A stretch of DNA of 63,662 nt, filler included, from Stramenopiles sp. TOSAG23-6 (Eukaryota), in NCBI GenBank assembly GCA_900128565.1. It is 7 parts of 7 records of this genome, joined end to end, with 100 filler letters (N's around TTAATTAATTAA, not from the genome) between each part and the next. Parts side by side here need not be neighbours in the genome. Positions count along the whole stretch, not along the records: positions 36,471 to 48,521 come from LT636223.1; 6 more parts are not named here. One strand, given 5' to 3'. Positions 8,057 through 58,408 of the stretch are shown here, one piece after another (the first letter of the stretch is position 1; each line of letters begins with the position of its first letter). The notes below the pieces were generated by a model. The model was not told the DNA's origin, ran no database searches, and saw nothing but the letters and a program-made list of their open reading frames with translations. Both the position numbers and the translations under genes were made by a program.

Positions 8057-10992
8057 TCAAAATAAACCAACAATTTTTCCTGATTCATAATCAAAATCAA
8101 TATCATAAAAACCTGGTCTCGTTGGAAGTCCAGGTATCGTCATGATCTTTCCTAATAAAGGAAATACAAAACCAGCTCCAACATTACACCTTATTTCTTT
8201 CACAGCTACGGTAAATCCTGTGGGAACTCCTTTCTTCTTTGGATGTATTGTAAAAGAAACTTGTGAAAAAAAAATTGTTAGGTACAAATTTTTCATATAA
8301 AAAAAAAAAAAAAAATTCTGAAAAAAAAAACATACATCTGTGCTTAAACTCAAATGTGTTTTTGCTATACATATCGGAAATTTCCCCCACCCTTGCTCTT
8401 CATAATATTTTATCGTTTCAGCAACATTATCAGGTATTTCTACACCATCAGCTCCATAAATTTCTCTCGCAATGACTGAAATTTTTTCTTTAATGGGCAT
8501 ACATTGTGAAAAATATTTTTTGTTTGTTGGAAAAATCGTTAGGTACAAAATTTTTATAAAAAAAAAATCAGATTTCAAAAAATTAAAACGTACATGCACA
8601 AAGGATACAAAAATTTGAATCCTGGACTGTTTTGATTCGTTGATCGAGACATTGCACAAACAGACGCAACGGCAAGGCCTAAGTCAGTTGCACCTGCGCC
8701 CCCTGTATTTTGAAAAAATATTTCAAAAAAAAACTAAAATTTGTTAGGTACAAAATTTTTATAAAAAAAAATTTCGAATTTTTTGTAAAAAAAAAAAATA
8801 AAACACACCTTGTGCCCAATGATTTGAAAGAATTGCATGTCCTGCTCCTGCTTCTAAGGCAGCTTTACACACAATATCAATTTCAGAGTTAGTATCAGTC
8901 GCAAATTTATTTACAGCCACAACAGGTGTTATCCCAAATTTCAAAGCACTTCGAATTTTTAGTGTCAAAAAATAATTAACAAAAAAAAAATTGTTAATGT
9001 ATGAATTTTTTTTTAAAAAATTAGAAAAAAAAAAATTTTAGGTACGAAATTTTCTATGAAAAAAAAATAAATTTAAAATTCATGATGTTATACAACGTAC
9101 ATGATGCTGAAGATTACAAACTCCTGCTCGAAGCAAGTCCAAATTTTCTTCTGTGTATTGCGATGCAAGAGGGGTACCGGGTTTCACAGGTGGGCCACCA
9201 CCATGCATTTTCAATGCTCTCACAGTGGCTACAATGACAGCACAGTTTGGGATTAGTCCGGATTGACGACATTTTATATTGAAAAATTTTTCCATTCCAA
9301 TATCAGCACCAAAGCCACATATTGTGAAAAAATATTCAAAAAAAAAATTGAAATTTTTTAGGTACGAAATTTCGTACGAAAAAAAAAATAAATTTGAAAT
9401 TGAAGAGAACAACGTACGCACTCAGTGACACAAAATCCTTCGTCGCCGACTAATTTCAACGCTACTTGATCTGCAACAATGGAAGAGTTGCCATGAGCAA
9501 TATTTGCAAATGGACCAGCATGAACGAAAACATTTGTTGGACAAAATATTTCAAAAAAAAATTAAATTTTGTTAGGTACAAAATTTCGTATGAAAAAAAA
9601 AACCCAAAAAAAATGATTATGGAAATATACAGGTGTTCCTTCTAACGTTTGCATCAATGTTGGCTTGATCGCTTCTGCCATCAATACTGTTAGAGCTCCA
9701 CCAGTACCTAAATCATCAGCTGTGATAGGTTCACCAGATCTAGACTGGCCAATCACCATTCGACCTAATCGATCTCTCATGTCTTCTACTATATTGTGAA
9801 AAAAAAAAAGTTTTGGAAAAAAAATCGTTAGGTACAAAATTTCGTACGAAAAAAATTAAATTTAAAATGAATTGTGAAAACGTACATGATGTGGTCAATG
9901 CCAATATAGCCATAATTTCGCTAGCTACAGTTATATCGAATCCTGTTTGACGAGGTGTACCTTTTTTTTCCGTCGGAGACTCACCGACAGTTATAGATCG
10001 AAGATGTCGATCACAAGTATCAATGACTCTTTTCCAAGTGACTGAATTCGGGTCAATATGTCTTGTGAGAAAATATATTTTTTTTAATTTGTTAGGTACA
10101 AAATTTCGTATGAATTGTTTTAAATGTTTTTAAAATGTTTATAAAATGTTTTTTACATTTTTTTTACGAAAAAACAAATAATACATTACAATTAAAATTA
10201 ATAATGAAAATATACATTCAAACGAGAAAAAGATGTGATTTCATCAGGTGTTAAATTATCAGGATGAGTTTTTTCTATACCAAGTTTTTTTAATCTTTTC
10301 AGCATTACAGGAGAAAAATGACGAGAACCATCTTTTTTTTTTGGACATAAANGTCGAAACAATGCTGCATCCGATTGAGTATCCTCGTGGTACATTCGAG
10401 TATCGATCGCAGCAGCAAGTAAATTATTGGCAGCTGTAATGGCGTGTATGTCACCAGTCAAATGTAGATTAAATTCCTCCATAGGAATAACCTGCGCATA
10501 GCCACCACCCGCAGCACCGCCCTTGATACCAAATGTTGGTCCTTGTGAGGGCTGTCGAAGACAACAAAATACGCGCTTGCCCAGATGTGCGCCTAATGCT
10601 TGACAAATACCAACAGTAGTAGTGCTTTTACCTTCACCAAGTGGTGTTGGATTGATCCCAGCAACTACAACGTAATTACCTTCAGGAGAATCTTTCAATC
10701 TGTCACGAATATCAAGACTCACTTTTGCTTTATATCGGCCATACTGCTCAATTTCACAGGGAAGAATTCCGGCCTCACGAGCGACTTGATTAATGTGAAG
10801 AGGTGTCACACTTTGGGATACTTCAATATCTGAAGGGACAGGCTCAAGGCAACGAAGTTCTTCCCTCTGGGAGACTTCATTATTCTCTGCTCCAAAACAT
10901 AAAGCGAACTCAATTAACTTTTCCCGATCTTCGTAAACACCAGCTTCTTTTGCTAAACGGGAAATATTTCCAACTTGACTCATCATTTGCAA
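8057..10992 (-). CDS. FTHFS: Formate-tetrahydrofolate ligase, 9 exons (introns 10058-10215, 9789-9885, 9532-9630, 9317-9417, 8957-9100, 8703-8808, 8499-8593, 8243-8335)
   Basis: [69 protein letters not shown]; conserved motifs restored at each junction. Confidence 0.96.
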
Positions 10993-36370: not shown

Positions 36371-36470
36371 NNNNNNNNNNNNNNNNNNNNNNNNNNNNNN
36401 NNNNNNNNNNNNNNTTAATTAATTAANNNNNNNNNNNNNNNNNNNNNNNNNNNNNNNNNNNNNNNNNNNN
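36371..36470. other. Artificial contig spacer
   Basis: N-run with TTAATTAATTAA. Confidence 0.98.
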
Positions 36471-36856
36471 TCTTTTTCGATTCGTCGTCCTTAGACTTTG
36501 CTGGAGCACCAAAACTAAAACCAGGAGTACTACTCTTTTTCGACTCATCATCAGACTTTGCTGGAGCACCAAAACTAAAACCAGGAGTACTACTCTTTTT
36601 CGATTCGTCGTCCTTAGACTTTGCTGGAGCACCAAAACTAAAACCAGGAGTACTACTCTTTTTCGACTCATCATCAGACTTTGCTGGAGCACCAAAACTA
36701 AAACCAGGAGTACTACTCTTTTTCGATTCGTCGTCCTTAGACTTTGCTGGAGCACCAAAACTAAAACCAGGCGTACTACTCTTTTTCGATTCGTCGTCCT
36801 TAGACTTTGCTGGAGCACCAAAACTAAAACCAGGCGTACTACTCTTTTTCGACTCA
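36471..36856 (-). repeat. Coding tandem repeat of 60/63-bp units (ESKKSSTPGFSFGAPAKS(K)DD)
   Basis: About six near-identical units running into the contig end. Confidence 0.9.
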
Positions 36857-39444
36857 TTTTCTTGACTTGTAGATCGAACTAATGACATACCTCTATTTAC
36901 TTTACCATTTTGAGATTCCTTTTCTTTGATGCCACTAATTGGCTGTACTGCTTTTTCTTGAGATTGCTCTGTACGACCAAATGTGAAATCAGATACAGAC
37001 TTATTAAGAGCATGTTTTTCTGGTTTTTCTGGCTTAGAAGAAATCGATTCAGCAAAACTATTCTTTTTGACACTATCTAATTTTGGAGCATCACTAAATT
37101 TAAAATTAGATATGATTGAGGATTGATCTTCCAACAAAGTCGCATTTGTTACATGGATCACTGGAGCATTTGAAAATGTAAATGAATCCTCTGAATTTGA
37201 TGAATTTGATGTTGACATATTTAGAAAAGATGATGATTTGACATGTGAATTCGAATGTATCGTCGTTTTTTCATGTTTTGTATTTTTTTCAAAACTGAAT
37301 GAAAATTCAGGTTTTTTCTTTTCGTCGACAGTTTGAGTAAAAGTAAATGAAGAATTTTTTCTTGTTGCGGCGGCGGAGGGTACAGATGATTGATCATTTC
37401 TATTATTATTATCATTTTGAATTTCATATTTATCAAATACCTCTTTTGTATTATCCAATACCGGAGGTTTTGAAATCGAATCACTTGAACGTTGTTTCAT
37501 ATTAGGCAATGAAAAAGTTAATTTTTTATTCGTTTTCACACCATCTACAACATTTTCAACTACCTCTGGAGAATAAAATAAAGGTTTTGAAACAGTATTA
37601 AAATTCGAATGTACATTTAAATGTACATTTATACCATTTTTCGTACCTAACGAATTTCGAATTTGCTGAGACTTTGCCTGTTCCGTTTTTCTTCGAATAG
37701 GAGCATGTATTTTGGAAAAATATTTCGAAAAAAAAAAACTAAGATTTGTTAGGTACAAAATTTTCAAAAAAAAAAAAATTAAATTCGAAATTAAAAAAAA
37801 ATCGTTAGGTACAAAATGTACTATGAAAAATAAATTCAAAATTGAACAAAAAATAAAACATACAGGTGTTGCAGTATTAGCGTGAATATTTTTAATTTCC
37901 AATGAAACATTTGGTAATTTTTCCACTTCTTTTACATCATTTTTGGAATTATTTCGTGTTTTGCCTTGTCTGACTTTAATAACAGAACCTGTAACACCTT
38001 TAATGCGTTTTTCATTAGAGGGCGGAACAGGAGCTCTTTTGCTACGTGTCACTTCAAGTGGTGTTGACATTTGCTGTAAAGCGGAAAGAATTGAGTCTCT
38101 GATCTTCATTGCTTCATTGGCTTTTTTGGCTTTTGTACTACCACCAACCCTACCAATAGAATTCGATTTCAAATTATTCGTTGCTTCTGTATTGATATCA
38201 CTCAAATTTCGTATACCAGGAGTTGTTCCAGTTAGTAAAGAAGAAGGTCGAGATCGAGATTTATTTTTTAATGAAGAGTAGCGATATTTCGTATGAGATT
38301 TTCTACTTGAACTAAGTAAAGCTTGTTCGGACCAAAAATTTTCATGACCAAATCCTGTTTTTTTTACTGAACTTAATCTACTCTTTGAAATAGTATTTTT
38401 ATGCAGTCTTTGCAATTTAAACGCACGGGGACGAATTTCAGGCGAATTTGCAAAATCAAAATCACCATATTTTGTTGCTGTTTTTTTTGTAAATCTTTCA
38501 CGTTTCCCTCCTACTGTTCTATCCTTAGGGTTGGGGTTATTATTGATATTTTTACGATTTGTTGATACATCTACATTTTCATCATTACAATTTGAATTAT
38601 TATTTAAATTATTATTTAAATTATTATTTGAATTTGAGCCAAACACAAACATCTCATTTGAATGTACATTTGAATGTACATTTGAATGTACATTTGAATG
38701 TACATTTAGATTATTTTGATTATTTCGTGCATGAGATGAAACTGTACCAAACATACGAGGTAAAGTATTTTCAGCATATTGATGACGTCTTTCCCCAGTC
38801 ATCAAACCAGGATAATATCCCGGTACCATAGCAGCAGCTGGAGTGTTAAATCTATTTGTTGAAGTGTTTGAAACGACCATTGGAGTCATCGAAATATCCA
38901 TACCTATAACTCCTCCATTTGTATCGGATACAGCACCATATCTATTAGGGTTAGTCGGTTCAATATACCCCCGATGATACCCTATCGTAGGGTTAGGGTT
39001 CATACTAACACCAAACGGTGTTGCATAGCGATACGATATTCTATGTTGTTGTTGTTGTTGTTGTTGTTGGCATTGGTGGTGGAGGTGTGGCGCAGGAGCA
39101 GGTGTCGCTAAACACATTGGTGTCAATAAACGATGTCCAGGCGAAGTTTGTGTATTAACTTGTTGTCGGATCCTCGAGTCATCTCTATGAGTAAATCTAC
39201 GTATTACATCAACTGGGGTAAGATGTTGCTGAGGATTCCCATTTGATATTATTTGATTATTCGGAGCAACGCGCGTAAAAGATGGACGTACTAAAGGAGT
39301 TTTTTTTGTATGTAATCCTACGGGTTTCGTACCTAACGAATTTCCAATTTGCTGAGTGTCATCATTTTCATTTATATGGATATTTTGTTGAGGGTCAGGG
39401 TTTAAGGTCTGAATATTCTGTTGATGCTCTTGAGATTGTGATAT

Positions 39445-39478
<34 letters not shown>

Positions 39479-41211
39479 CCAGAAGATTGTGAGTGCAATT
39501 GATTTAATTTTGAAACAGAATCTGAATTTACAGTCGATCCTACTAAATTTTGAATTTGCTGAGCAGACGGTTCCGAATTCAAAATATCATTTTTTGTTAA
39601 ATTTTGAATTTGCTGAGCAGACGTTTCCGAATTCAAAATATCATTTTTTGTTGCAACTTGAGGTGTCCGAGAGGATGCATGTTTCAGATTTAGTTGTAAA
39701 CGCCTGGGAGTATTTATGTTCTTTTTTGTCATTTCTTCATATCGATTCACTAATGATGAATGATCTTTTGAAAACATAGGTGACGTTTTACTTGAAAATG
39801 GTGCGTTAGGGTTTCTAACATTGGGTGACGTCTGTTGCAAAGAAGTATAATACTCATTTTGTGTTTTTTTATCTACTTTTTGATGCCTAGAATTCAACAT
39901 CTCATTTGTTCCACCTTGCAAATCGTTTGTTTCATGTGTTTTGTGTGTTTCATTTTTTTCATTGTTTTCATTTTTTTCATATTTTGTAGTTAATTCACAT
40001 TCAACCATTGCGTCTCCTTCAGTGTTTCGTTTCTGATGAAGAATTTCATTTTGAGTTTCATTTTGAGTTTCATTTTGAGTTTCAATGTTTTGTACTACTC
40101 CTACATCATTTTTTAAAACTGGATCTTGTTTTTGTACTACAGCATTCTGTGGAACCCTAGATACTGCCTGTTCTTGGATTTCGTGTTGTGTTGATGCTAC
40201 ATCTTGTGTCTCTTGTACAGTATTTTTTTTTGTAGAAGTAAAAGTTTCATCATTAGGATTAGATTGATTTTGGACATTTTTTTTTTCATCAATTTTCATA
40301 TTATTTTGAATATTTTCCGATTTCTCAGAAGAAGGATCAGAATAAACATTATCTGTCAGAGCCATCGCATCAGCAATCTCAGCATCCAAATCATCAACTA
40401 ATTGATTACCGTCATTCGTTGTTAGAGAAATAATTTCCTTTTTCTGTTTTTCTTTTTGTTCTCTACGTCTAGAAGTTGTTATTTTATGACTACTAGGACT
40501 ACGATGAATACGATGATCAACAGTGCCATCAAGATGAGTATGTGTCCATTGACGTGTCAACTTTGGACGTCTCCGCTTTGAACTGGAGCGTTTTGAACTT
40601 GAGCTTCGAGTTTCAGGACCTTGACGACTTTTTCGTGTTTTTGTGCGAGTCTTCACAGGTGACCTCGGAGATAGAGGAATGATACCTCCATTGTCTTTCA
40701 CACCACGCATTAAACGATCAAGTAATTCACGTTTTAAACCATAGTATGGCATTTTCAGAAGTTTTAGTTTTTCCTGTAAAATATTTTTTGTCATACTTTC
40801 CAATTCTTCACATGTAGCATCATCAAGTTCATCGTCAGAATCAGAGTCGGTCGACTGAGCAAGACTTTCTTCATCCACCGCATCTTCGTATATACTTTCG
40901 TCTTTAGCATTTGCTGAATGATCCATTTCAAACAAAGAGTCATTTTCGCGTTCTTTATCAACTTCATTATGGTCTTGAGACGTAGAAGGCACACTCGCAT
41001 TAGATGACCACGTACTTGACCATAGGGAAGTAGTCACATCTTGAACCGGACTTGTACCCACCGTAAAAAACGAAGGAACAGTACGATTCCACCAGCCAGT
41101 TATTTTTCCTTTCACGCTATCGATACCACTCGTTGATGTAGCGAGTCGACGCCTCTTTGAAGGAAGTTGATGGCCTGATTCAGACTCACGCTCTGACTCA
41201 CGTTTTGGCAT
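36471..41211 (-). CDS. FG-repeat nucleoporin-like protein (Nup153/Nup1-type) with SAP-like motif; in-frame intron 37705-37863 (GT-AT); 3'-truncated
   Basis: FxF and FSFG repeats, N-terminal NLS KRRR, MTKNILQEKLKLLKMPYYGLKRELLDRL SAP-like segment. Confidence 0.7.
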
Positions 41212-41626
41212 CTTTGTAGAAAGAATAAATTCTCACTTAAAGCAGAACTATTACCCAAGATCACACCCTATAATAATTCGTATACAGAATTAATGTACCT
41301 ATCAAATACTATTTATGCCAATGGGTTTTTATACCCACTTTACTGGCCGCTTCGCGTCTAAAAACAAGTCAAAAACCAGTTGACAATACTAGTATACGTA
41401 TAGCCTATGATAGAGGTGTTGTAGCTCGTGGTCGTCAAAAATGATTTGTTGATTTGATGATCAATGAGATATTATGAAAAAAGAAAGCGCGGCAGGTCTG
41501 CGCGAAAATGACACGCGTGAAGTCTTCAAACTTCAAAATGGCCAGTTCGACTTTTTCATTTATCATCTAATTGCTTTGACTTGGAGAAGGAAACTCTTAT
41601 TAAAGGCATTCTTTAGTATTTTTTCG

Positions 41627-44278
41627 ATGGGAGAACCAAAATCTTTTCCAGATGAACCATTAAGTGTACAAACTTTGGCCCTTCATATAGTAAAAGAGCA
41701 TTTTGGTCCATTAGTGGAAACTGTTTGCAAGGGGTTGGCACAGTGCGGACTCATCTCCTTGACTGCATTGTTGGGAAAGTTGCGTCGGTGGACACCGTCT
41801 TGGGATCGAAAAAATGTTGTTCATATACTAAGTTTATTGTTACAGCATAATTTATTGGATGTTCAACAGCGAGCGCCGTATAAAGATGCTATGGGTGTAA
41901 TACAACACCCTCCAGTATTGTACGCATTCCGTTCTCGTTCTGCTGTGCATCGTTTGCGGTATGCAAAACTTCTCTACCACATAAAGAAACGGTTTGGTAC
42001 TGATGGGGAAATGCTATTATATAGACTTCTCTTTAATGGAAGAGCACAGGAGTCTCGGTTATGTGAAGAAGCATTTGAGTATCTTGATCGAGTAAAAAAC
42101 CTCAAAGTCGATTCTACTTCTGAGAAAGATGCAAATCTGAATTCTTCAACAGTAAAGAAAGAAATGAATGAAGATAACATCTCACAAGAAAGAGAAGACA
42201 GACTTTCCTCGTTACAGGATGTATTTCTTGAGATGGTATCAGAAGGGTATATCCAGCGTGTTGAACGTTTAGATCTCTTGAAAACAAAAATTTCTAAAGG
42301 AAAGAAAAAGAAAACAAATTCCAAATTGAAAAAAAAAGTGAAAAACTCAAAAAACTCAAAAACTAAAAAGAACTCAAAAACTAAAAAACGGTCAAAACGC
42401 AAACGTGCTCAAGGTCTTGGTGAAACCAGCTCGGATGAAGAGTCTTCTCGTAAAGCACCTAAAAAACGATCTCGAATGCAATTACGTGGTGTAAAAAAGG
42501 AAGATAATGATGACATGTATGTTTTAGTTTTTTTTCAATTTTTTGTCTACATTTTTTTTTTTTTTTATAGTAAATTTTGTACCTAACATTTTTTTTTTGG
42601 TACATTTTTAAATATTTTTCCAAAATACATGCTACAATCAAGTAGTGAAGTTGACCTAAGTAATATGATGGGGCTTTCTTCTACATCATCATCAAGTGGT
42701 CTATCAAGTGGTGAGTATATTTCTAAAACATCAACAAACACTACATTGAATGATTCACGGAGCAATGCAGATTCTTTTCAAGTCTGTCTTCCCCGTTTTA
42801 CTCGTGAATTTAGTATGTTTACTCCCAACTATAAACCCTAACCCTAATTCCATATTGATAAAAAAAAAAAAAAAAAAAAAATTTCATACGAAATTTTGTA
42901 CCTAACAAATTTTTACTAAAAAAAAATTGAAATATTTTTCCAAAAAAAACATTTTTTTTTTCATACGAAATTTTGTACCTAACAAATTTTTACTAAAATT
43001 TTTTTTTTTGAAATATTTTTCTACAATAAATGAGAAATTGCATTAAAAAGTTGCACAAAAGAATCTGAAGGTAAACTCTCTTCAAAAGTAGTTGGTTATA
43101 TATTAGCTATGCGTAATGCTCAAATTGCAGAATCTGATCGAAACTTTTGTGGTTCCCGCGGCTTTCAATTTGATGGTCGTAGTGTATTTGATTACATCAA
43201 GAATGAGAACCCTAACCCTAGTTGTACGAAAGGAAACCCTAACCCTAATTCTTTGGAATTCTTTGGTGAAGATTTTACATATCGAAAGTGTCTTCGTATC
43301 CTTGATTCTTTATCAAAAGGCCCTTATTCAATACTAGAGAAGGCATGTAGTTTTAGTGAAGATTCGTATGTTTTCATTTTTATACGAAATTCTGTACCTA
43401 ATGTTTTCATTTTTTTTTTTTAAATTTTTTTTAAAATTTGTTGTATACGAAATTCTGTACCTAACATTTTGTTTTTTTGTTTAAAATTTTCACAATTCAG
43501 GAAAGATAATGATCAATATTGTGGCGGAAATTTCTCATTTGAGTACAGACCTGCTTTAGATGCACTTATCAGAGATACAATAGAAGATATTATACTACAA
43601 AAATATGTATGTTTTATTTTTTTTAATTTTTTGTCTAAATTTATTTTTTCGTACGAAATTTTGTACCTAACAAATTTTCAAATTTTTTTTTGAAATATTT
43701 TTCTACAATATATGGTGTGCAGAGCAAACGTGTTTTCCGTTTACTTCTTGAATCTCATTATTTAGAAGTGAGAGAAATTAGTATGAAATCATTAATTGGT
43801 GTAAAAGAGACGCGTGCGATATTATTCCAATTATTCTCAGCTGGATTTTTGAAATTACAAGAAGTTCCTAAAAAATCTGATCATGAATGTTTTATTTTTT
43901 TTTTTTTTCCGGTAAAAAAAAAATCGAATTTTTTTTTTTTGAAAATTTTGTACCTAACAATTTTTTTTTTTATACAAAATTTTGAAATATTTTTCCAAAA
44001 TACATAGCCCACAATCAACTTTATATGTCTGGTCTATAGACCAAGCTCAGTTGATGATTCGTCTATCTGCTGATATTCATAAATCTATATTTAATTTACG
44101 AGTACGTAGACAACAGGAATGGGATTCAAATGAAGCACTAATTGAACGACACCAGCGACGATTAATATCAACTGCGAGAGATAAACAAAAATTTCTTCAT
44201 TTGGGTGGTATCCTTCGTCAATTAGATTCAAGTATACTACAATTGGATGATACTTTGATGCTTCTTGTTGATTTTTAA
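41627..44278 (+). CDS. POLR3C: RNA polymerase III subunit RPC3/RPC82, 6 exons (introns 42517-42630, 42813-43031, 43366-43500, 43607-43713, 43885-44005)
   Basis: EHFGPLVETV, LLLQHNL, RLRYAK, LLFNGR, KY|G..RVFRLL, LQEVPKKSDH|SPQSTLYVW, QLDDTLMLL. Confidence 0.9.
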
Positions 44279-44409
44279 AATGTATTTTAAAATGTATTTT
44301 AAAATGTATTTCAAAATGTATTTTTGTTTTTCTTAGAAATTAAATGTAAGATCTTTATTTTTATTGTCTTTTTTTGTTGTACAAGTATGTTATTGAAACA
44401 CTTTATATG

Positions 44410-45687
44410 CTAGACTATTGGTAAAATCATCTTAAATAAAGCTTCTGCGGTACGCTTATCAAAGTCATTAAAATGTCCTTCACAACAGACACGAGTTTCT
44501 CCTATTGTGATATCATTTAGTGACGTACAATTCCAGAAGACATATTCACCAATAGTTACACTATGTGATATTGAAATTGACTTTAATGATGTGCAATTCT
44601 TGAAGGCACGATCGCCAATAGAACTAGTTGAACTATTCATTAAATTAATCGATTTTAATGATGAACAATTACGGAAGGCATCTTCACCAATTCTAGTTGT
44701 ACTTCTGGAAAATCGAATACTTACTAGTGATTTACATCCACTGAAAGCCATTGCACCAATACTAGTTATATTTTTTGGCATTCGAATAGTTTTTAGTGAT
44801 GAACAATTACGAAAGGTATCTTCAGGAATATTAGTTATACTATTAGGTAAATGAATCGACTCTAATGACGTGCAACCACGAAAGGCACTAATGCCAATGC
44901 TAGTTACGCTATTGGGTATTATAATAGTTTTCAATGATTTACAGTCACGAAAGGCCATTTCACCAATACTAGTTGTCCTATTTGATATTGAAATGTACTC
45001 TAGTGAAGTACAATGAAAGAATGCATATTCACCAATACTAGTTATACTTTTTGGCAACTGAATAGACTCCAAGGAATCACAATTATAGAAGGCACTTGTA
45101 CGAATTTTGGTAATGCCATTTGGTATTGTAATAGATTTTAGTAATCTACAAGCATAAAAGGCATACTCACCAATACTAACTACACTATTTGGCAATTGAA
45201 TACACTTTAGAAATATGCAATCCTGGAAGGCGAAATCACCAATACTCAAAACTTTATGCTTTAAGTAGTCTTTAATAATTCCCAATGGTTCAATATTCAA
45301 CTCACCTCCAGTTTCATATAAACGCCGCATACTACTTGATGTGTCTTGACACTCACAACACAGTAGCAAACAAAGCATTTCTTGGACACTAGGATTAACC
45401 TCAGTCACTACTGTTAAACGTTTCTTATATTTACGATCAACGGTGACTACTCCTTCGCATGATACTCGAATAAACTGATTTGTACGAATGGCTTGCAATT
45501 CTTTTTCATTTGTCTTTTTCCTCTTCTTTTTCCTCTTCTTTTTCCTCTTTTTTGTATTTTTACCTCGAGGACCATTGCACGCCAATAATCTGTAAGATAC
45601 TCGCCTTTTCTTCCCTTTTTTTTTATGTTTATTGTGCATTTCTGTAGAAGTAGAGCCAAATAGGGTATCCGTAATATATTTCATCAT
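44410..45687 (-). CDS. BspA-family (LRR_5) leucine-rich repeat protein
   Basis: About 11 repeats of IxLPNSVTSIGxxAFxxCxSLxS; intronless. Confidence 0.92.
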   Translation of the reverse strand: MMKYITDTLFGSTSTEMHNKHKKKGKKRRVSYRLLACNGPRGKNTKKRKKKRKKKRKKTNEKELQAIRTNQFIRVSCEGVVTVDRKYKKRLTVVTEVNPSVQEMLCLLLCCECQDTSSSMRRLYETGGELNIEPLGIIKDYLKHKVLSIGDFAFQDCIFLKCIQLPNSVVSIGEYAFYACRLLKSITIPNGITKIRTSAFYNCDSLESIQLPKSITSIGEYAFFHCTSLEYISISNRTTSIGEMAFRDCKSLKTIIIPNSVTSIGISAFRGCTSLESIHLPNSITNIPEDTFRNCSSLKTIRMPKNITSIGAMAFSGCKSLVSIRFSRSTTRIGEDAFRNCSSLKSINLMNSSTSSIGDRAFKNCTSLKSISISHSVTIGEYVFWNCTSLNDITIGETRVCCEGHFNDFDKRTAEALFKMILPIV

Positions 45688-46692
45688 AATGATGATTTAT
45701 TTCTATATGCCATGCGTATCTCTCGCAATTAAACTTGTTCTTTGAACCAAGATTCCTTGCTAAATTAATCCAAAAGTTTAGGTAAATTTATCAAAAGCTA
45801 CGGTATGAAAGACTTCGGCTATACCAAAAAGCGAAAAAAACGCACATTTTTCAAATTTTTTGAAACCGTAGAATTTTTGATTCAGCGTCAGCATGCATCA
45901 AATTACTTGTAGATATTGACTTACTAGCTACAACAACCAGTAAAGTACTGCTTAGGCCCAGTGACCGGCCAGTATTGTTGAAAGTGTAGCAAATACTATA
46001 TTATATAGTATACCGTTGGATTTTGGTCATTATTTCAAATCAGAATAATAGTGTACTCTATCTACTGCATTGATAGTAGCACAGTACAATAAAAGTGCAA
46101 TAATCGAACCTTTTAGATAGTAGTGTAGTACTCACATCTTCATTTGGACAATGTTTAGTCGTTTTTCTCGCGTTTTTGGTCATCTGCAACAAACACTTCA
46201 GACAGTTGGAAAACAAGAGCCACTGCCTTGGCAATATGGCGTCGTGGTACTCGGTGGTGCGATAGGAATATCCATTCTTACGTGACCGTGTCACCAAAAA
46301 CCAAAGACACTGACATGCCGTTCCCCCGAGTCTTGTGAGTGTCCTCAGTGTTTCAACTCAGGAAATAAATAGTTTTTCCTTGTATATTTTTCAGCCTTTT
46401 AGTTGTAATTTCAGTTGATGGGAGTATAGATCAAAACTTTATGAAAATTTGAACTCTCTGATGGAAAACTAAAACTAAAATTGTTTGATTTTGTGTAAAT
46501 TAATGCAAATAAATTGTAGAAAAAAATAATAAAATTATATACAAATTTTATGTATCATGTAAACAACAAATTCCATTTTTTTTTGCCATGATTTTCAACG
46601 TCAATGCCTTGAGCTCCATCATCTTGGTTTTACTTTTTGATTATTTCGTGATTTTCAACATCAATGCCTTGAGTTCCATCATCTTGGTTTTA

Positions 46693-48449
46693 TCATCTTG
46701 GTTTTACTTTTTGATTATTCCGTGACGTCATTTTTGTTTGTTGATTAGTGTTAGGATTATACAAGTGCAATAGAAATATTGAAAAGATGCTAAAAATTCC
46801 TATTAAAACACCTAACAAGGAAGCTGTTATTGTACGTTTGAAGATGTATTTTGGAAAAATATTTCAAAAAAAAAAAAAAATCTTTTAGGTTTAGGTACAA
46901 AATTTACTATAAAAACAAAATTAGAATTTGAAAAAAAATAAAACATACATGCATCCTGATGTACCACTTCTGTCAGGTTGTTGTAACATTTGTGTTTTAA
47001 TATCAAATGTGAATAAAAGATTGCCTTTATATCCTTTATTACATCCACAGATAGGTTCACTACAATGTTCATATCTTTGTCCATTCTCCCTTGTCTTCAC
47101 CGTAATTTTTTCAGTAGCACAAGTACATGACCAAGCAGATGCTTTATATATATACAAAGATGCAAACGATTCAATTTCACCAGTACTAATAGCACTACAT
47201 TTCAAATTTGTCCATCCATTAGCAGTCCATGTAGGAGTACCGCTATATCCACTAGCACATGAACAAGTACCATTACCTGCAACAATATTGTCACCTACAC
47301 ATGTCGAAATAGCTGACGCGCAATTAGCAGGACTTTCCCATATTTCTTGATGTAAATATCCTAAATTGATGGCAGCTGTCTTTTGGTCTGTTGTCAAAGA
47401 AGACCAAGGATCACACATAATCAAATCACCTGAAGTGAGTGGTGATAATATACAGCCATTACTTGTATCAGTAGCATTACATTCTCTAGTCAACTGAGTA
47501 TTTTCAGAATTCACTGCTGTTATGTATTTTGGAAAAATATTAAAAAAAAATTCTAAAAAATTTGTTAGGTACAAACTTTTTATAAAAAAAAAATTTAGAC
47601 AAAAAATTGAAGAAAAATAAAACATACATTGTCCCAATCCATTGACCTTTTTCATTATACAATTTCTTCCCAATACGAAAATTTTTCTTTCTTTTAAAGT
47701 ATGTCAATGCATCAACTGTAATCACAGAATTGTTACTAGTCTTGACTTCAACTCTTCCAAATTGAATGTCTTTTGTTGAATGTATTTTAGAAAAATATTT
47801 CAAAAAAAAATCTAAAAAAATTTGTTAGGTACAAAATTTCGTATGAAAAAAAATAAATTTTTTTGTAAAAAAAAATAAAACATACATTATACGCTGCATT
47901 CCATTCCGTCTTTGTCCAACCACCAACTTTAGTATTTCCATTGACTAATGTAAAAGTATCTTTTATTCGTAAATCAATTGCTTTATTACGACATCGATAA
48001 ATATTACCATATATTGTGAAAATATATGTGAATATGTCCGAAACAAAAATCGTCAGAAAAAATCGTTGGGTACAAAAACAATTTTACAAAAAAAAAGTAG
48101 TGAAATTGAAATTGAAATTGAAATTGAAATTGAAATTGAAATTGAAATTAGAATGATGAAAACAAACACTAACACTCACTGTAATATAATCACAGCGAGT
48201 ATCCGATTTACATTTAGATTTGTTATTGTTTAGCGTTTGACAACCTTCAAAGACTCCTTTTTGTTTTAGTGTGATTGAAGATTTAGTCATTGATTCAATC
48301 TCACCAATTGATTCTTCACCTCCATCGATACCACATTTATAGGACCACTTAATGTTATTATCATCTGGATCGGTATTACATGAATATATTTTCATGTTTG
48401 GAGAAATTCGATTCATTGCATAAAAACCAGTGTAATTAATGATCATATC
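46693..48449 (-). CDS. Cys-rich/EGF-like surface protein with C-terminal TM helix, 5'-truncated (introns 48009-48167, 47780-47885, 47522-47627, 46844-46948; all GT-AT)
   Basis: Exons join into one open frame; CSCASGYSG and CGCNKGYKG motifs; hydrophobic ASLLGVLIGIFSIFSIFLL. Confidence 0.7.
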
Positions 48450-48521
48450 ATGGATTTTGGAAAAATATTTCAAAAAAAAAAACTTAAATTTGTTAGGTAC
48501 AAAATTGCGTACGAAAAAAAA

Positions 48522-48621
48522 NNNNNNNNNNNNNNNNNNNNNNNNNNNNNNNNNNNNNNNNNNNNTTAATTAATTAANNNNNNNNNNNNNNNNNNNNNNN
48601 NNNNNNNNNNNNNNNNNNNNN
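48522..48621. other. Artificial contig spacer
   Basis: N-run with TTAATTAATTAA. Confidence 0.98.
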
Positions 48622-48723
48622 ATTTTGGAAAAATATTTCAAAAAAAATCTAAAAAAATTTGTTAGGTACAAAATTTACTATAAAAAAAATTTAGGTAAAA
48701 AATTGAAAAAAAATAAAACGTGC

Positions 48724-50153
48724 ATACTCATTACCAAATAATAATAAAACAATAACTGCTGTAAATCCAGAAATAATTGATACTAAAAACGTATGTAGTG
48801 TTAAAGTTGACAATATTGTTGATATACCCCCATGTTTTTTGGGTAAATATTAAAAAAAAAAAATCTTTTAGGTTTAGGTACAAAATTTTCAAAAAAAAAA
48901 AAATCGATTTTTTTGTTAAAAAAAAAAATAAAATATACATCATTATCATCCCACATACAATCAACAAGAATATATCAAATTCAATCACGTTTAGAAATGA
49001 AATTCATTTAAAAGAAAAATATATTGTTTGTTTTTCGCCTAAAGTTAGGGTTAGTGTTCTACGTATCTTTGGATTCCGTACCATTTTTTTCATACCTAAA
49101 AAACCTAAAAAAACTAAAAAACCTAAAAAACCTTTAAAAAAAAAAAAGTACAAAAAATTGGTACGGAATCCAAAGATACGTACAGCACTAGTTAGGGGTA
49201 GGGTGTAAACAACGTACATTTTTCGTGGAAGGATATCTCTCAACATTGACCGAGTTAATGGAACACTGAAGTAGCACAAAGAACCAAGAAGTGATGCAAT
49301 ATATATTGACGGTATTGATGGGAAATATATATGTTTNGAAAATATTTAAAATTCAATTTTTTTCTACAGTTAGGTATGAAATTTTGTAAAAAAAAAACCT
49401 ACTATTAGGGTTAGGTAATCGAAATTGAAATGAATCATGAAAACATATATACCCAAATTGAAACAGCCAAGACACCACACCATTGTGATAATACTAACAA
49501 TTGACGACGTCCTACGCCTATTCATTTGGTAATATGTCAAAAAAGTAGTTTTTTTTTGGTTAGATATAGAACATATAGAACTCTCTGTGAAAAAAATAGT
49601 GTAGATAACCAGATGAACAACTCATTCGTGTTCATTCGTGTTCATTAGGTTTCATTAGGTTTCATTAGGGTGAGGATAAGTTACGATCACTAAGTCTACC
49701 TAAAAATGGGTAAAAGTATATAGATAGAATTGACCCTGGAATGAATCGGTATGCCATGAACCACGCAATTTCCACTGGTTCGTCCTTGACATAGTAATAT
49801 AAGTATTCTGTAATGCAAGGGAGAGATACTGAAATACATACAGCCCAACCTAGCATAACTTTAAGTATGTGGCCAATGATGCCTTCAGGTGTCATATTCA
49901 AACGAGCAGCTAGTTCGGCACGATGAGCAAACTCATCTTCATCAACAAATAATTCCAAACCTGCAATCTTTGTTTTACTCTTCAACTTTGTGGCTTCTGA
50001 AAGTGTACATGCTGTAGCATACCTTGCGCGACATTCTGGGCATCTTTTTGAAGTACCAGAAGCGGAAAAAAATATTTGTGAACATCCACCACAACATATA
50101 TTTTTGCCAGTAGATTCCGGTAGCACTTTTTTCTCTTTTTGATGACCAAACAT
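48724..50153 (-). CDS. MFS transporter-like gene, mirror copy (multi-exon, truncated)
   Basis: Exact reverse complement of 59121..60550. Confidence 0.6.
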
Positions 50154-50691
50154 AATCAATGATATGCTTTTGTGACAATGATGTTTATTCTCTCACTGAA
50201 AAAGTTTCTTGTGACAAAGATGTTTGTTGTTTCGCTGAAAACGTTTCTTGCGACAATGATGTTTGTCCTCTCACTGAAAAAAGTGTTTTCAAGCTATGTC
50301 TAGTAAAGATTTTAAGATTTTTATTGAACTTTCTACAATTTCAATGAATCGATACCGAAACCTTGAATGACCGATGCTTCGATAATAAATAAACCCCGAA
50401 ATTTAAATCTCCTATATATTAAATTAATAAATTCAATAAATTCAAAATTATAAAGCTTACTCTTAAAAATGCTCAGATGACATGCGTTTACCAGGTGATG
50501 GATTCCAAATCTCACCCATTAGACCACTATACCATCTACTATATAAAATTCTTTGTACTGTTTTTATTATAACTTTTTTAATCTTGATAAAATTAAAAAA
50601 TAATATTTCATATCTGGAATACACACGAAATACAAAAAATATCTACAAGTACACACGAAATACAAAAAATATCTACAATTTTTTTTGTCCT

Positions 50692-50794
50692 TTTTTGCTT
50701 TTGCTTTTGCTTTTGTTGCTTTTGCTTTTGTTGCTTTTGGTTTTGTTGCTTTTGCTTTTGTTGCTTTTGCTTTTGTTGCTTTTGTTGCTTTTGC
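50692..50794. repeat. TTTTGC/TTG microsatellite-like tract upstream of tRNA-Lys (mirror 58480-58582)
   Basis: Direct reading of repeated ttttgc and ttg units. Confidence 0.85.
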
Positions 50795-50865
50795 TGTACG
50801 TACATTTAGACCGTGTAGATTTCGTGTTCGATTGATGGATTGTTCTTTGCAACTCAGTCGCCGTG

Positions 50866-50938
50866 ACCCGTCTAGCTCAGTTGGCAGAGCGCCAGACTCT
50901 TAATCTGGTGGTCGTGGGTTCGAGCCCCACGGTGGGTG
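50866..50938 (+). tRNA. tRNA-Lys (CTT)
   Basis: Acceptor stem ACCCGTC/GGTGGGT, D-arm TAGCTCAGTTGGCAGAGC, anticodon arm CCAGA-CTCTTAA-TCTGG, GGTTCGAGCC T-loop, followed by a T-run. Confidence 0.96.
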
Positions 50939-51201
50939 TTTTGTTTTTTTGGCCTATAATATTATACGCTTTCGTATTTATAGTCTTTTTTTTTTTTTTT
51001 TTGAGATTTAGAATTTTAGATTTGAAATTTGAAATTCTGCCGTTAAATTTTTTTTTCAAGATTTTAAATTCTGAATTTTGTAAAATACGGCTACAGGTGC
51101 TCTGTGTGAATTAATTGGAATTGGAATTTGGATACGTACGTTATAATCGTAATGTAAAATACATTCGTCCTAAATTAGTTGTAAGCACCAAAAAAAAGAA
51201 A

Positions 51202-51879
51202 ATGACTATGAGTATCAAGAAGTGTCTTTCAAGTATTATGCTTATTACGATAAGCTATTTTTCGTTTGCAGCACCACAATCTCAACCACAACAACCACTA
51301 ACACCACCAGCATCTCCACCAACACAACAACTAGCATCTCCACCAGAACAACAACCACCAGCACCAGTAACACAATTACAGGGAAATGTTACCGGCGGTC
51401 ACGGTCATGGTGGTGCACAAGCAGACGCAAACGCAAAAGTAGCAGCAAAAGCGGAGGCAGACGCAAAAGCAGCAGCAGAAGAAGCAAAGGCAGCAAAAGA
51501 ATTGGCAGAAGCAGAAATACAAGCAGAAGCAGCGAAAGCTGCGACGTGTACTGCCCATTCAGACTGTAGTGATGAGGAATATTGCTCAGCGAATAAAGTG
51601 TGCACCAAGAGGCTTGAGTTGACTAAAGTCTGCAAAGACGACCACGAGTGTCTTTCAGATTGGTGCGAAAAAGAAGAAGCTACATCGATAGACAAAACAT
51701 GCCTACCATGGCACGCGCACGCCGACGATATAGACGATACAAATTTTCCCTCTTGGTGGATACTTCTTTTGGCTATTGGTTTGCCACTGTGTACTGTGTG
51801 TATTTGCATTGGAAGTTTAGGATACTTTGGTGTCATAGTATGCTCAAGACTTACCAGTAAGCCCAAGACTTACCAGTAA
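51202..51879 (+). CDS. Type I membrane protein (signal peptide, P/Q-rich and A-rich segments, Cys-rich module, TM)
   Basis: ORF composition; CTAHSDCSDEEYC...CKDDHECLSDWC; Cys-rich TM helix. Confidence 0.7.
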   Translation: MTMSIKKCLSSIMLITISYFSFAAPQSQPQQPLTPPASPPTQQLASPPEQQPPAPVTQLQGNVTGGHGHGGAQADANAKVAAKAEADAKAAAEEAKAAKELAEAEIQAEAAKAATCTAHSDCSDEEYCSANKVCTKRLELTKVCKDDHECLSDWCEKEEATSIDKTCLPWHAHADDIDDTNFPSWWILLLAIGLPLCTVCICIGSLGYFGVIVCSRLTSKPKTYQ

Positions 51880-51975
51880 GCCCAAGACTTACCAGTAGGC
51901 CTCCACCTACCCAGCAACATTGTGTTCAGCTACCCACTGTTGTGGAAGTTGTGACACAATAAAATATTGTAGCTA

Positions 51976-52164
51976 TTGCATATAATATTTTATTGGGTTA
52001 TATATAAATCAAGTTCCATCGTTGCAAAACTTATCAAAAAAGGTGCTAATGTTAATAAGGGTTGTCCCCATGATCAGACCAATTGGACCCCATTGCGTGT
52101 TGCTTCAGAGAATGGTAATACCTCAGTAGTTCAACTACTTCTTGAAGCTGGTGCTGAGATGTGA
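51976..52164 (+). pseudogene. Ankyrin-repeat gene fragment (mirror 57110-57298)
   Basis: LIKKGANVN...NWTPLRVASENGNTSVVQLLLEAGA; no ATG start, early stop. Confidence 0.55.
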
Positions 52165-52374
52165 ACGTCTTGACAAAAGAACAGAAAGAAGAAGCACGTA
52201 TCTTTGCTGCTAATTAAACATTTAAAGAAATAGAAATTAAATAAATTTGTATTTCGATTTGTATTTCGTGTTTTTTTTAAAGACAAAAAAAATTGAAAAT
52301 CTCAAAAAGAAAGATACTGTTTTTGTTTTTTTGGATCATCTTTTACAGTTTGAACGCCGTATTGTTTTGTTTAG

Positions 52375-53367
52375 ATGTTGATTCGATATTGTACGATGGC
52401 AAAACAAACATATAGAATAAAATGGCTTATATTAGTATATTTTATTTCGTTATTTAAAATAACAAATTGTTTGAAGAGAAATATAGGTAATAAAATGCAG
52501 GCTAACGTATATGTCTGTGATTGCACACTATCGAACGCATCCCCGTGTAGAGAACAGTGTATTGCAGTTGCACGTACAGCATATGTGACAAATGAAAAGC
52601 AAAAGTATCAGCAAGTATATCATGGAAACACTTTCGACACAAGTACTGATAGAAAAACTGGTACTCAAAGTAAGGATAATAAAGAGACCGATAGGGCTTT
52701 GTCCAAAAATGTACAAAACGAAACAAAATATGAAGAGCATATCAATGATAGTATCAAGGGTGTTAAAAAAGAATTAGATAAAAGTAGTTATAATAATAAT
52801 ATATTGAACAACGCTGATACTGGTAATCCAAGATTTCGAAACAAAGAATATGTTAAAGAAAAAGATGTTAAAAAAGAAAATGGGAAAGAAAAAGATGTTA
52901 AAAAAGAAGATGTTAAAAAAGAATATGGTAAAGAAAAAGATGTTAAAAAAGAATATGGGAAAGAAACAGATGTTAAAAAAGAATATGGTAAAGAAAAAGA
53001 TGTTAAAAAAGAATATGGTAAAAAAGAATATGGTAAAGAAAAACATGTTAAAAAAGAATATGGTAAAAAAGAATATGATAAAGAAAAAGATGTTAGTACC
53101 AATACTGTTGTACCTAAGGAATTAGCGTTTGAAAAGAATGACGTGTATACCACCGACGTAGAAGATATTGCCGAGAATAATGTAAATCAAGATGCGACAC
53201 GTTTTAGAGAGATTGACAATTCTCAATATGATGAACAAATTTTGAAGGTCAAACATGAAATTGAAAAGGTAAATCAAAGAATTCTGTTAGAAAAAAATGA
53301 AATTCAACTACAAAAAGTTGAAGATAAAATTGACTATCTTCAACAAAGACTTACATTTCTATCTTAA
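52375..53367 (+). CDS. Secreted protein with KEKDVKKEYG tandem repeats and C-terminal coiled coil
   Basis: Hydrophobic N-terminus, CDC..C..C motif, 30-bp coding repeat at about 52845-53095. Confidence 0.7.
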   Translation: MLIRYCTMAKQTYRIKWLILVYFISLFKITNCLKRNIGNKMQANVYVCDCTLSNASPCREQCIAVARTAYVTNEKQKYQQVYHGNTFDTSTDRKTGTQSKDNKETDRALSKNVQNETKYEEHINDSIKGVKKELDKSSYNNNILNNADTGNPRFRNKEYVKEKDVKKENGKEKDVKKEDVKKEYGKEKDVKKEYGKETDVKKEYGKEKDVKKEYGKKEYGKEKHVKKEYGKKEYDKEKDVSTNTVVPKELAFEKNDVYTTDVEDIAENNVNQDATRFREIDNSQYDEQILKVKHEIEKVNQRILLEKNEIQLQKVEDKIDYLQQRLTFLS

Positions 53368-54297
53368 AATATAAAATTGATTATCTATAACAAAGATTTT
53401 ATTTTTTATTTGGGGTATTTGTACAATGTGTTTAATATTAAGTAGTAGTATTTGTTTGAAAACATGCTTATGAAATGTTTGCAAGAGTAAATTTTGCTTA
53501 GTATTCCGCTTCTGTTTACATACTGTATTTTATTTATTCTATAGATGGTGATTTTACTCACTAAAATGAAATGAGTAAATCTGGAATACATTTTAGTGAG
53601 TTTTAGTGAGTAAAATCATCATAATAGATCTAGGATAAATAAAATACAGTACTTATTTTTTTTTTTTCCAATTTGGTATACTTAGGGTTAGGGTTTTTTT
53701 TTGAAGGTAATCGTATAAAAAATCAAAAAATCATTAAAATTGTGACTCGTTGAACCAAGTCGAAGTTGACCGCCGTCTTCTTCTCTCTCTCTCTCTCTTC
53801 TCTCACTGTTTCTTTCTTTTTTTAAAGTAAACAGAGTACTTACATAGCGTCAATATCTCGCACAACATATTATTGTTTACTATACTATTTCTATACTGGC
53901 TTATTTCAGTGTTTTCATCACAATACAGCAATATTGTAGAACTGCTTCCAACGGTGCTGACATCATACAAAGTAAAATTTTTGAAAAGTACTATTGAAAT
54001 TCTTTCTAGTCAAATCATAGTCAATATATGCGTGTTGACAATACTATCAAATACAAACTGTATTATTGAGTTACCACACACAATTTTCAAAAAAGTACAA
54101 TGCCGAGGCTTAATCTCTCGGAGGAACAAGTTCGTGAAAACATGGAACGTTGGCATAATCTTCCTAGACTTACATTTAGTTTGACAAAGGCTCCCAACGA
54201 CTTTAATGTGAGAGATGGTTCTTCTTACAAGGAAGGTGTAATCATGTATGCCGGGACGTTTGTGTGGCTTGCATTGCTTTTAACAATCATTGGTTTT

Positions 54298-55174
54298 TGT
54301 GAAAATATTTCAGAAATTTTTTTAAAAAATTTTTTAAAATATTTTGTTAGGTATGAAATTTCGTACCAAAAAAAAAAAAAAATAAAAAAATAATAAAATG
54401 ATGAAAAATTTACGTACATATCGAACAGTATCAAACAAAAATGTTGAACTGTCAATATTTGTACCTAAATTATCCATATTAAAGATCGCATCTTTATGAA
54501 GTTTTTCTACATTTTGGAACAATCCTGTTACTATATCAGGGCTATTCTCTTGAGGTGTAGACTGTAGCATAGCTTTTGCTAATAATGCTTCAATATTTTC
54601 TAAACTTTCAAATAATGTGAAAAAATATTTTTTTTTTTTTTTTTTTTTAGGTACAGAATTTCGTATGAAAAAAAAAAATTTTTTTTTTTTTTTTTTTTTT
54701 TTTTGTTAGGTATGAAATTTTGTATTTTTTTTGTGGTTCAAAAAACACAAAAAAACACAAAAAAACAGGTTTTTTTTGAACAATTATAACAATTACGTCT
54801 TATTTGAAAACAATGTACAATGTAAAAATAAATACATTATAAAAGAATGATGAAAACGTACAGAGATAACAACAACAATTCATCCTTTTTTTTTTTGTAT
54901 TGTTGACATTTTGTTGTTGTCGATGGCAGCCAAGTTTTTTCCGTAACCATTTCGAATTTGATACTATGATCAACACAAAACCAATGATTGTTAAAAGCAA
55001 TGCAAGCCACACAAACGTCCCGGCATACATGATTACACCTTCCTTGTAAGAAGAACCATCTCTCACATTAAAGTCGTTGGGAGCCTTTGTCAAACTAAAT
55101 GTAAGTCTAGGAAGATTATGCCAACGTTCCATGTTTTCACGAACTTGTTCCTCCGAGAGATTAAGCCTCGGCAT
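54298..55174 (-). CDS. Tweety-like membrane protein, N-terminal exons (truncated; partial mirror 54100-54297)
   Basis: WHNLPRLTFSLTKAPNDFN...YKEGVIMYAG followed by a TM helix resembles the TTYH N-terminus; downstream exon structure unresolved. Confidence 0.55.
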
Positions 55175-58335: not shown

Positions 58336-58408
58336 CACCCACCGTGGGGCTCGAACCCACGACCACCAGATTAAGAGTCTGGCGCTCTGCCAACTGAGCT
58401 AGACGGGT
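58336..58408 (-). tRNA. tRNA-Lys (CTT), mirror copy
   Basis: Reverse complement of 50866..50938. Confidence 0.95.

Follow-up and report, generated by a model that had tools for sequence, protein, structure and literature searches.

The question raised by this locus is how a segment that begins with GA and ends with AT (positions 43885-44005) could be removed from the coding sequence of an RPC3-like gene in Stramenopiles sp. TOSAG23-6 (GenBank assembly GCA_900128565.1); the window, that is, the whole stretch of DNA analysed here, is 63,662 nucleotides (nt) long, and the gene lies in the part taken from LT636223.1 (36471-48521). Our analysis suggests that the segment is probably one copy of an abundant family of transposon-like (introner-like) introns of about 100 nt, and on the alignments the object of interest is the rule followed by this family, GT...AT with a 3' cut that appears independent of AG, of which the GA start is a one-letter variant. 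This answer is carried by the membership of the segment in the family, by family-defined ends that preserve the reading frame, by residue-exact junctions in RPC3 and in a second gene, FTHFS, and by the exact removal of one copy in contigs from RNA libraries.

The gene model (Table 1) agrees with several independent matches. Exon 1 matches the Pfam family HTH_9 (the RPC82 helix-turn-helix; 1.3e-7) and exon 5 matches POLR3C_WHD (E of 2e-15, profile positions 12-66 of 77), both above the cut-off; exon 5 also matches residues 361-415 of the human RPC3 chain 2xub_A (E of 1.3e-7), with its last residue, a histidine, on H415. The alignment of exon 6 (44006-44275) with the same chain begins at its second residue, a proline, on P417 (E of 1.2e-3) and covers the human stretches 417-466 and 481-524, and a full HMMER search with exon 5 recovered 102 RPC3 homologues. 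An N-terminal helix-turn-helix together with a C-terminal winged helix identifies the predicted product as an RPC3/POLR3C homologue (RNA polymerase III subunit C82), so that an earlier note on this DNA, which had placed an intervening sequence in an RPC3-like gene, is borne out by Pfam, by 2xub_A and by the 102 homologues. Exon 4 gave a chance match alone against solved structures (E of 0.35), and the intron 4 junction was judged by homologue alignment instead. A protein search for a transcript-derived RPC3 across 43884/44006, queried with exon 6 and with residues 1-190 of exon 1, returned no match, and a scan of metagenome contigs with exon 5 gave 433 pattern matches, of which 0 were confirmed, and no relative.

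Exon 5 ends ...GAT CAT at 43884, the segment spans 43885 (GAATGTTTT...) to 44005 (...CCAAAATACAT), and AGC CCA CAA follows from 44006; the segment has 15% G+C over its 121 nt. Because the histidine aligns with H415 and the proline with P417, exactly one residue is required between exons 5 and 6, and removal of 43885-44005 supplies it, giving PKKSDH-S-PQSTLY with a single serine between the two. Among 100 usable RPC3 homologues, 83 have a proline two residues after the histidine-equivalent position; the intervening position holds A in 52 sequences, N in 14, S in 7, T in 6 and D in 2. Of the two nearest relatives, P0122 (the closest) has PKRSDH-S-PQTTFY and P0121 has PKRSDH-N-PQTTIY. The earlier proposal that the removal restores a conserved PK..DH-x-P..T.Y stretch is therefore upheld both by the H415/P417 alignment and by the 100 homologues. 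The nearby canonical sites offer no substitute, as had also been claimed: pairing the GT at +4 with the AG at +2 would take out 119 nt, which breaks the frame and brings a stop shortly afterwards, and among 961 pairs of cuts within 15 nt on either side of both ends, 308 are in frame and free of stops, with 0 GT/GC...AG pairs among them. Because 308 of the 961 pairs keep the frame in this way, restoration of the frame alone is weak evidence; support for the GA...AT junction comes from homology and from the ends defined by the family. Cuts moved by -1, -2 or -3 (TG..CA, AT..AC and CA..TA) yield the identical mRNA, which leaves "GA-AT" as one label among four that are interchangeable. In register 0, counted from the opening G to the closing T, intron 5 has the ends GA and AT and is not a U2-type GT-AG intron, and a shift of +2 (AT..AG) replaces the serine by aspartate. 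On homology and family ends together, 43885-44005 is the best reading of RPC3 intron 5 and a likely one.

The alignments place the GA copy in a repeat family of about 100 nt (about 85-160 nt) that appears to supply almost every intron of the window, with copies co-oriented with genes and located in RPC3, in FTHFS and in further unrelated open reading frames (ORFs). The 11-mer TTGTACCTAAC, the core of the family, has 42 matches in the window at no more than one mismatch, against 1.1 expected, and these cluster on the strand of the local ORFs; it is present in 5/5 RPC3 introns and 8/8 FTHFS introns. An alignment of 22 copies from end to end (alignment A1) has three common blocks, namely a 5' block (GTATGTTTT or GTACGTTTT; consensus GTAYGTTTT), the core, which is invariant in the alignment and preceded by (C)NTACGAAATT, and a 3' block (GAAATATTTTTCCAAAATACAT, written (GAAATATTTTT)CCAAAATACAT). 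The stretches between the blocks are shared too, which argues for common descent rather than for splicing signals alone. The GA copy aligns with the 21 other copies over its whole length, with one mismatch in the 10-nt 5' block, none in the 10-nt 3' block, where it carries CAAAATACAT, and an exact core; its sole peculiarity is A instead of T at +2, a change that none of the other 21 aligned copies carries. Two tandem cores between single family-type ends, as in double or nested elements, occur at 42813-43031 (+), 37705-37863 (-) and 43366-43500 (+), and a copy that starts with GC (GCACGTTTTA) lies at 48723 (-), with its mirror at 60551 (+) and its 3' end lost in a linker. Contig depth over family segments reaches hundreds to thousands, against single digits on the flanking exons, depth not being copy number. 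With many similar copies as predicted introns of unrelated genes, the family is one of introners in the operational sense of that term.

The positions of the cuts were taken from 27 complete copies curated by hand, since the best match to the 10-nt blocks misplaced several ends; the set excludes three copies interrupted by linkers, the mirrored duplicates, two FTHFS introns with ambiguous ends (at 10101 and 9100), and core matches in coding or unrelated sequence. The copies start with GT in 26 cases and with GA in one (RPC3 intron 5), and they end in AT in 22, AG in four and GT in one. The earlier statement that both ends of the segment are non-canonical and form an unusual pair accordingly stands for the GA start (1/27 copies), whereas the AT end is the family rule (22/27). 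AT lies directly upstream of the element in 18/27 copies, the core lies 31-57 nt from the 3' end in all 27, and an AG between core and end is left unused in 9/27. Family-defined ends keep the frame in 24/24 copies with unambiguous flanking frames, whereas the next downstream AG would keep it in 8/21 copies that do not end in AG, which is about chance. The highly conserved FTHFS gene (8060-10980, -) was compared by tblastn with P0002, its nearest homologue, which is 77% identical in the alignment used for the tree, and six of its junctions are residue-exact without any insertion or deletion: three GT..AT, two GT..AG and one GT..GT (Table 1). A further FTHFS intron, at about 8955-9100 (-), has a family-like start (GTACGTTG at 9100), is longer, and by homology would end at about 8955 on ...AA, which is not a family-type end. 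In RPC3, only an AT end keeps intron 2 colinear with P0121 and P0122, and intron 4 must end at AT, because use of the AG 9 nt downstream would cost three residues, including a glycine kept in 19/20 homologues. Across the curated set, register 0 appears as the only register valid for all copies: at FTHFS 9630 the preceding exon ends in CT and a conserved proline must stay, and at RPC3 intron 2 the -1 register at 42813 would make a TGA stop. We therefore rejected AT..AC or TG..CA as a register for the whole family on these two grounds and because 9/27 copies have no AT upstream.

Evidence from RNA libraries bears on another copy of the same family. Part of the RPC3 gene is contained in 14/15 listed public runs, of which two small ones contain most of it, the others being seawater or marine metagenomes and metatranscriptomes. 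We aligned contigs (not reads) from the DNA metagenome X3 and from the metatranscriptomes X7, X8 and X10 to 36471-48521, and the differences, joints and pieces reported here are those among the alignments listed, which are part of the whole. Because long X3 contigs show few differences, seawater is a habitat of this organism or of a close strain. The one clean joint among those listed connects 47521 to 47628 and skips 106 nt; on the plus strand its ends read AT..AC, which is GT..AT on the minus strand of the gene, with an ambiguity of 2 nt. It occurs in one contig of X7 (side 152) and one contig of X8 (side 99), both poly(A) libraries and from two studies, and in no contig of the DNA run X3 or of X10. 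The skipped unit, 47627-47522, is exactly that defined by the family, despite an AG inside it and another AG 5 nt downstream.

These observations would fit a mechanism in which a small DNA transposon with GTAT...ATAC ends duplicates a 2-nt target on insertion and the cell removes the element plus one duplicate. The removed unit would begin at the first G and end with the final T, as GT...AT in register 0, and would leave the coding sequence intact, with the AT target duplication supplying the 3' end and the 3' cut needing no AG. The 5' block would act as a strong donor of the GTATGT type and the core ending in CTAAC, 31-57 nt before the 3' end, as a branch site; this core resembles the TACTAAC branch motif of yeast. 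The 3' cut would fall after the CAAAATAC block plus two letters, usually a repeat of the two exonic letters before the element, and the spliceosome would thus read signals internal to the element (5' block, CTAAC-like core and 3' block) instead of scanning for an AG. That removal is spliceosomal, and most likely proceeds by such internal signals rather than by AG scanning, is what the pattern of ends suggests. The RPC3 copy, with A for T at +2, would still be removed at the family ends to give ...PKKSDH-S-PQSTLY...; this is suggested by the open and conserved exon 6, by the essentiality of RPC3 and by the variable end letters of the family. RPC3 is an essential subunit of RNA polymerase III in yeast. 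It is possible, and we advance it tentatively, that the 5' block, the TACCTAAC core and the CAAAATAC block set both cuts of most introns and that the terminal dinucleotides do not decide. If so, the 3' end would be free to be AT, GT or AG, a GA at the 5' end would be tolerated, as the RPC3 copy would show, and the splicing machinery would be relaxed at +2 and at the last base, having evolved independently of Fritillaria, Amoebophrya and the euglenozoans.

Several results weigh against this picture, some against splicing of the GA copy and others against the transposon-like nature of the family. No spliced contig over 43884/44006 is found among the listed RNA-library contigs, and the only one of them that covers the 5' end (X10 record 7, 43738-43908) reads from exon 5 into the segment, unspliced, although such libraries can contain DNA too. 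G at +1 in 22/22 and T at +2 in 21/22 copies form a pattern like constraint on GT, and because GT is so strongly kept, the GA copy may be poorly spliced or its A may be an error. The two letters before a copy equal its last two in 18/27 copies (17 AT and 1 AG), as a target-site duplication would leave them, although the repeat has only 2 nt in AT-rich DNA. The 6-bp terminal pairing ATGTAT/ATACAT is possible in 84.1% of cells against 82.6% with shuffled columns, 82/500 shuffles being as high; the pairing falls to 7-62% when slid and has no covariation, and in RPC3 intron 5 the exonic AT with GAAT forms an imperfect version of it (ATGAAT/ATACAT). Since AT reads the same on both strands and is frequent in DNA of 33% G+C, and since the termini are 6 bp, the case for a transposon origin is soft. 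No stable fold was found in five copies (z of -0.45 to +0.37), the minimum-free-energy fold pairing the ends in 1/5, RNAalifold gave 0 consensus pairs in the family, and an Rfam scan of the window found two tRNAs only. Excision driven mainly by a hairpin was tried as an explanation and rejected, because the 6-bp complementarity is at shuffle level, the folds are no better than shuffled and RNAalifold finds no pairs.

The alternative that survives best, although we consider it unlikely, is that the organism does not have A at base 43886, or has it only in one amplified cell or a rare allele, the true intron being an ordinary GT...AT copy and the GA an artefact of amplification, assembly or somatic change. 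The T found at +2 in 21/22 aligned copies would be expected on this account, and the record resembles amplified single-cell-type data, with an inverted duplication of about 12 kb, while the best-matching runs are very small. Consensus errors are rare per base, as a matter of general knowledge, and yet one would have to strike one of the few critical positions; moreover, the GC-start copy at 48723 shows a further departure from T at +2. No letter difference at 43886 is among the listed contig differences, further alignments lying outside that listing, so that this observation favours neither reading.

Rather improbable, and compatible with removal at the family ends, is that a minor, U12-type spliceosome, or machinery derived from one, removes the family; such machinery is known to accept GT-AT and AT-AN ends. 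In the literature that we covered, GT-AT appears only as a rare pair, mostly of U12 type and otherwise of U2 type (PMC1557818; bioRxiv 10.1101/2020.10.12.336362). Physarum has an expanded set of U12-type introns with inverted repeats like those of transposons and a direct repeat of TA, and GT-AT makes up 17% of the non-canonical ones (bioRxiv 10.1101/2020.10.12.336362). The window family shares with these introns the GT-AT pair, the tolerance of varied 3' letters, and putative inverted repeats with a 2-nt direct repeat, and its GTAT..TTT start and ACCTAAC core loosely resemble the U12 consensus sequences [G/A]TATCCTT (bioRxiv 10.1101/2020.10.12.336362) and TTCCTT[G/A]AC, the core GTACCTAAC sharing CCT.AAC with the second. 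The first is nonetheless not followed by GTATGTTT or GTACGTTT of the family or by GAATGTTT of the GA copy: the family has GT where the defining CC stands at +5/+6, and a GA start matches neither consensus. The core also lies farther from the 3' end than in U12-type introns, at 31-57 nt (48 nt in the GA copy), so that many copies are near or beyond the U12 branch-site limit of about 45 nt.

It is very unlikely that the GA copy is not or only rarely removed, in which case a stop inside the segment would cost the last ~90 residues and the allele would be a defective or hypomorphic RPC3. The unspliced X10 contig at the 5' junction and the strong retention of GT across the family speak for such retention, but exon 6 is open, conserved, matches human RPC3 and aligns with the homologues, and RPC3 is essential in yeast. 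Other RPC3 pieces in these libraries are unspliced too, X7 record 19 (43443-43667) across exon 4 for example, which points to carry-over of DNA or pre-mRNA and not to a specific defect: because both this record and X10 record 7 are unspliced, the libraries appear to carry low-depth pre-mRNA or DNA of RPC3.

A placement of both cuts 2 nt to the right, as an AT...AG intron at 43887-44007, strikes us as very improbable too. Its product, ...GATCATGA joined to CCCACA, reads ...DH-D-PQ..., is in frame and free of stops, removes 121 nt as well, and keeps the spacing to P417; its AG is the first after the core (0 AG between core and end), and 2/100 homologues have D at this position. The 5' end would still be non-canonical (AT), both cuts would leave the family positions that are in frame in 24/24 copies, and S is found in 7 homologues against 2 with D, including the closest relative, P0122. 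The copy with RNA-library support, moreover, is cut at its family end even though an AG lies 5 nt downstream. Excision of the segments from DNA, as eliminated sequence or transposons, is hardly credible: the short inverted ends with an AT direct repeat do resemble a cut-and-paste element, and the RNA origin of the 47521 to 47628 joint is unprovable from contigs, but that joint comes from two poly(A) RNA libraries and from no contig of the DNA metagenome X3, the copies are co-oriented with genes, and intron-like 5' and branch-like signals are present.

With removal of GT...AT units at family ends as the preferred reading, the family can be set beside known introns. GA-AG introns occur in Oikopleura and Symbiodinium. 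Such introns share with the GA copy an A at +2 and are presumably still removed, but they keep a 3' AG and stand outside a GT-AT family. In animals, fungi and plants, only two non-canonical pairs are commoner than GA-AG (PMC7789003). Introners, which are transposon-derived introns akin to miniature inverted-repeat transposable elements (MITEs), have been described in Micromonas pusilla, Aureococcus, dinoflagellates and fungi (PMC11282704); they are normally GT-AG (PMC11282704; PMC7789003), and those of Micromonas and Aureococcus use canonical sites (PMC7789003). The window family is like them in its near-identical short copies in unrelated genes, their co-orientation, putative short inverted ends and short direct repeat at the junctions, and in that the duplicated target apparently provides one splice end and the coding sequence is restored exactly on removal; it is unlike those of Micromonas and Aureococcus, as described in these sources, in ending with AT in 22/27 copies. 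We found no description of a GT...AT introner family in the literature, of which our coverage is incomplete.

Further parallels exist in lineages that have departed from GT-AG. In Fritillaria borealis most introns escape GT/AG, are transposon-derived with terminal inverted repeats and target-site duplications (TSDs), and are suspected to be removed by an adapted major spliceosome, for which duplicated U2AF subunits have been proposed (PMC11282704; PMC13326754). There, too, an exonic repeat makes the 3' end (TAC in Fritillaria, AT in the window family; PMC11282704), but the introns of this animal mostly start with AG and end with AC or AT, whereas the window family, from a protist, has a strong yeast-like GTATGT and departs at the 3' end only. 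Amoebophrya (Syndiniales), like our organism a marine protist with repeated introns, has more than 60% non-canonical introns, no preferred terminal dinucleotides and no detectable U1 small nuclear RNA, and its repeated introns carry hairpin-forming inverted repeats of 8-20 nt as well as direct repeats of 3-5 nt that span the junctions (PMC7789003); the window family has one dominant pair, GT-AT, a 6-bp inverted repeat and no stable predicted fold. The nonconventional introns of euglenids and of hemistasiid and marine diplonemids lack GT-AG, carry TSD-like repeats, have variable borders and are suspected to derive from MITEs; their ends pair extensively, their 5' ends lack complementarity to U1, and those of hemistasiids are G/C-rich (PMC6221363; PMC12621601). 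The window family instead has a GTATGT start and minimal pairing, with about 15% G+C in the GA copy, and its predicted end pairing places it outside such introns.

The 3' AG is among the most conserved signals of eukaryotic gene expression, and few lineages are known to have given it up (Fritillaria, Amoebophrya, euglenids and some diplonemids), transposon-like introns being involved in each. A textbook 5' site combined with an end that is mostly AT (22/27) would amount to a clean natural experiment, both on the choice of the 3' cut and on the birth of introns from mobile elements, and one-letter variants such as the GA copy in an essential gene would show which positions the machinery can spare. 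Standard gene finders would mis-annotate nearly every split gene here and in relatives from ocean metagenomes.

Table 1. Positions of the genes, introns and junction elements discussed in the text, counted along the window.
Feature	Positions	Strand	Remarks
RPC3/POLR3C-like gene	41627..44278	+	six exons, 651 aa, single terminal stop in the coordinate-joined ORF
RPC3 exons	41627-42516, 42631-42812, 43032-43365, 43501-43606, 43714-43884, 44006-44278	+	
RPC3 intron 1	42517..42630	+	family copy, GT..AT
RPC3 intron 2	42813..43031	+	double element, two cores, GT..AT
RPC3 intron 3	43366..43500	+	family copy, GT..AG
RPC3 intron 4	43607..43713	+	family copy, GT..AT
RPC3 intron 5 (GA copy)	43885..44005	+	121 nt, probable GA...AT in register 0, repeat-family copy
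Exonic AT	43883..43884	+	same letters as the last two of the segment; direct repeat, TSD-like
5' dinucleotide GA	43885..43886	+	A at 43886 (intron +2) in place of the family T
Core TTGTACCTAAC	43948..43958	+	CTAAC motif resembling a branch site, 48 nt from the 3' end
3' block CAAAATACAT	43996..44005	+	conserved, ends AT
FTHFS intron	9789..9885	-	GT..AG; same family, tblastn
FTHFS intron	9532..9630	-	GT..AT; no insertion or deletion against P0002
FTHFS intron	9317..9417	-	GT..GT; junction an exact match to the homologue
FTHFS intron	8703..8808	-	GT..AG; same family, AG before the 5' end too
FTHFS intron	8499..8593	-	GT..AT; homologue LYPLTM|PIRQKIS
FTHFS intron	8243..8335	-	GT..AT; homologue LSLSCD|PKLKGVPTGF
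Family copy with RNA-library support	47522..47627	-	joint 47521 to 47628 skips 106 nt

As to the lineage, the dinoflagellate framing that the earlier note had given to the GA donor finds no support: the window has about 33% G+C overall (about 24-41% in 2-kb steps), its ORFs lie on both strands, and FTHFS pairs with a EukProt protein (100/100) and then with oomycetes (88/94, below the firm threshold) in a tree that included no dinoflagellate sequence. A desaturase ORF gave no taxonomic signal in the Protein Atlas. The source appears to be a marine protist, possibly a stramenopile.

The window contains six linkers (44 N, TTAATTAATTAA and 44 N), at 12061-12160, 24216-24315, 36371-36470, 48522-48621, 60653-60752 and 62158-62257. 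The first five start 12,131-12,155 nt apart, so that the parts are separate contigs of about 12 kb, seemingly ordered by length, the last complete one being of about 1.4 kb; because the window is a chain of separate contigs, adjacency across a linker is not biological. One of the parts, 48622-60652 (about 12 kb), is an inverted duplication with its axis at ~54.6 kb, in which ORFs, family copies and a tRNA (50866-50938, +, and 58336-58408, -) are mirrored, and it is likely an amplification chimera rather than biology.

Directly downstream of RPC3, at 44410-45696 (-), lies an intron-less ORF of 428 aa with leucine-rich repeats of the BspA type (Pfam LRR_5, 2.4e-106), a repeat that takes its name from a bacterial surface protein. 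The 13-mer AACCCTAACCCTA, made of two telomere-like units, occurs nine times in the window against 0 expected (16388, 38988, 42834, 43208, 43235, 53683/55579, 61272 and 61566), always in the orientation of the local gene and mostly within open frames; in RPC3, two copies in exon 3 encode NPNP and one lies in intron 2.

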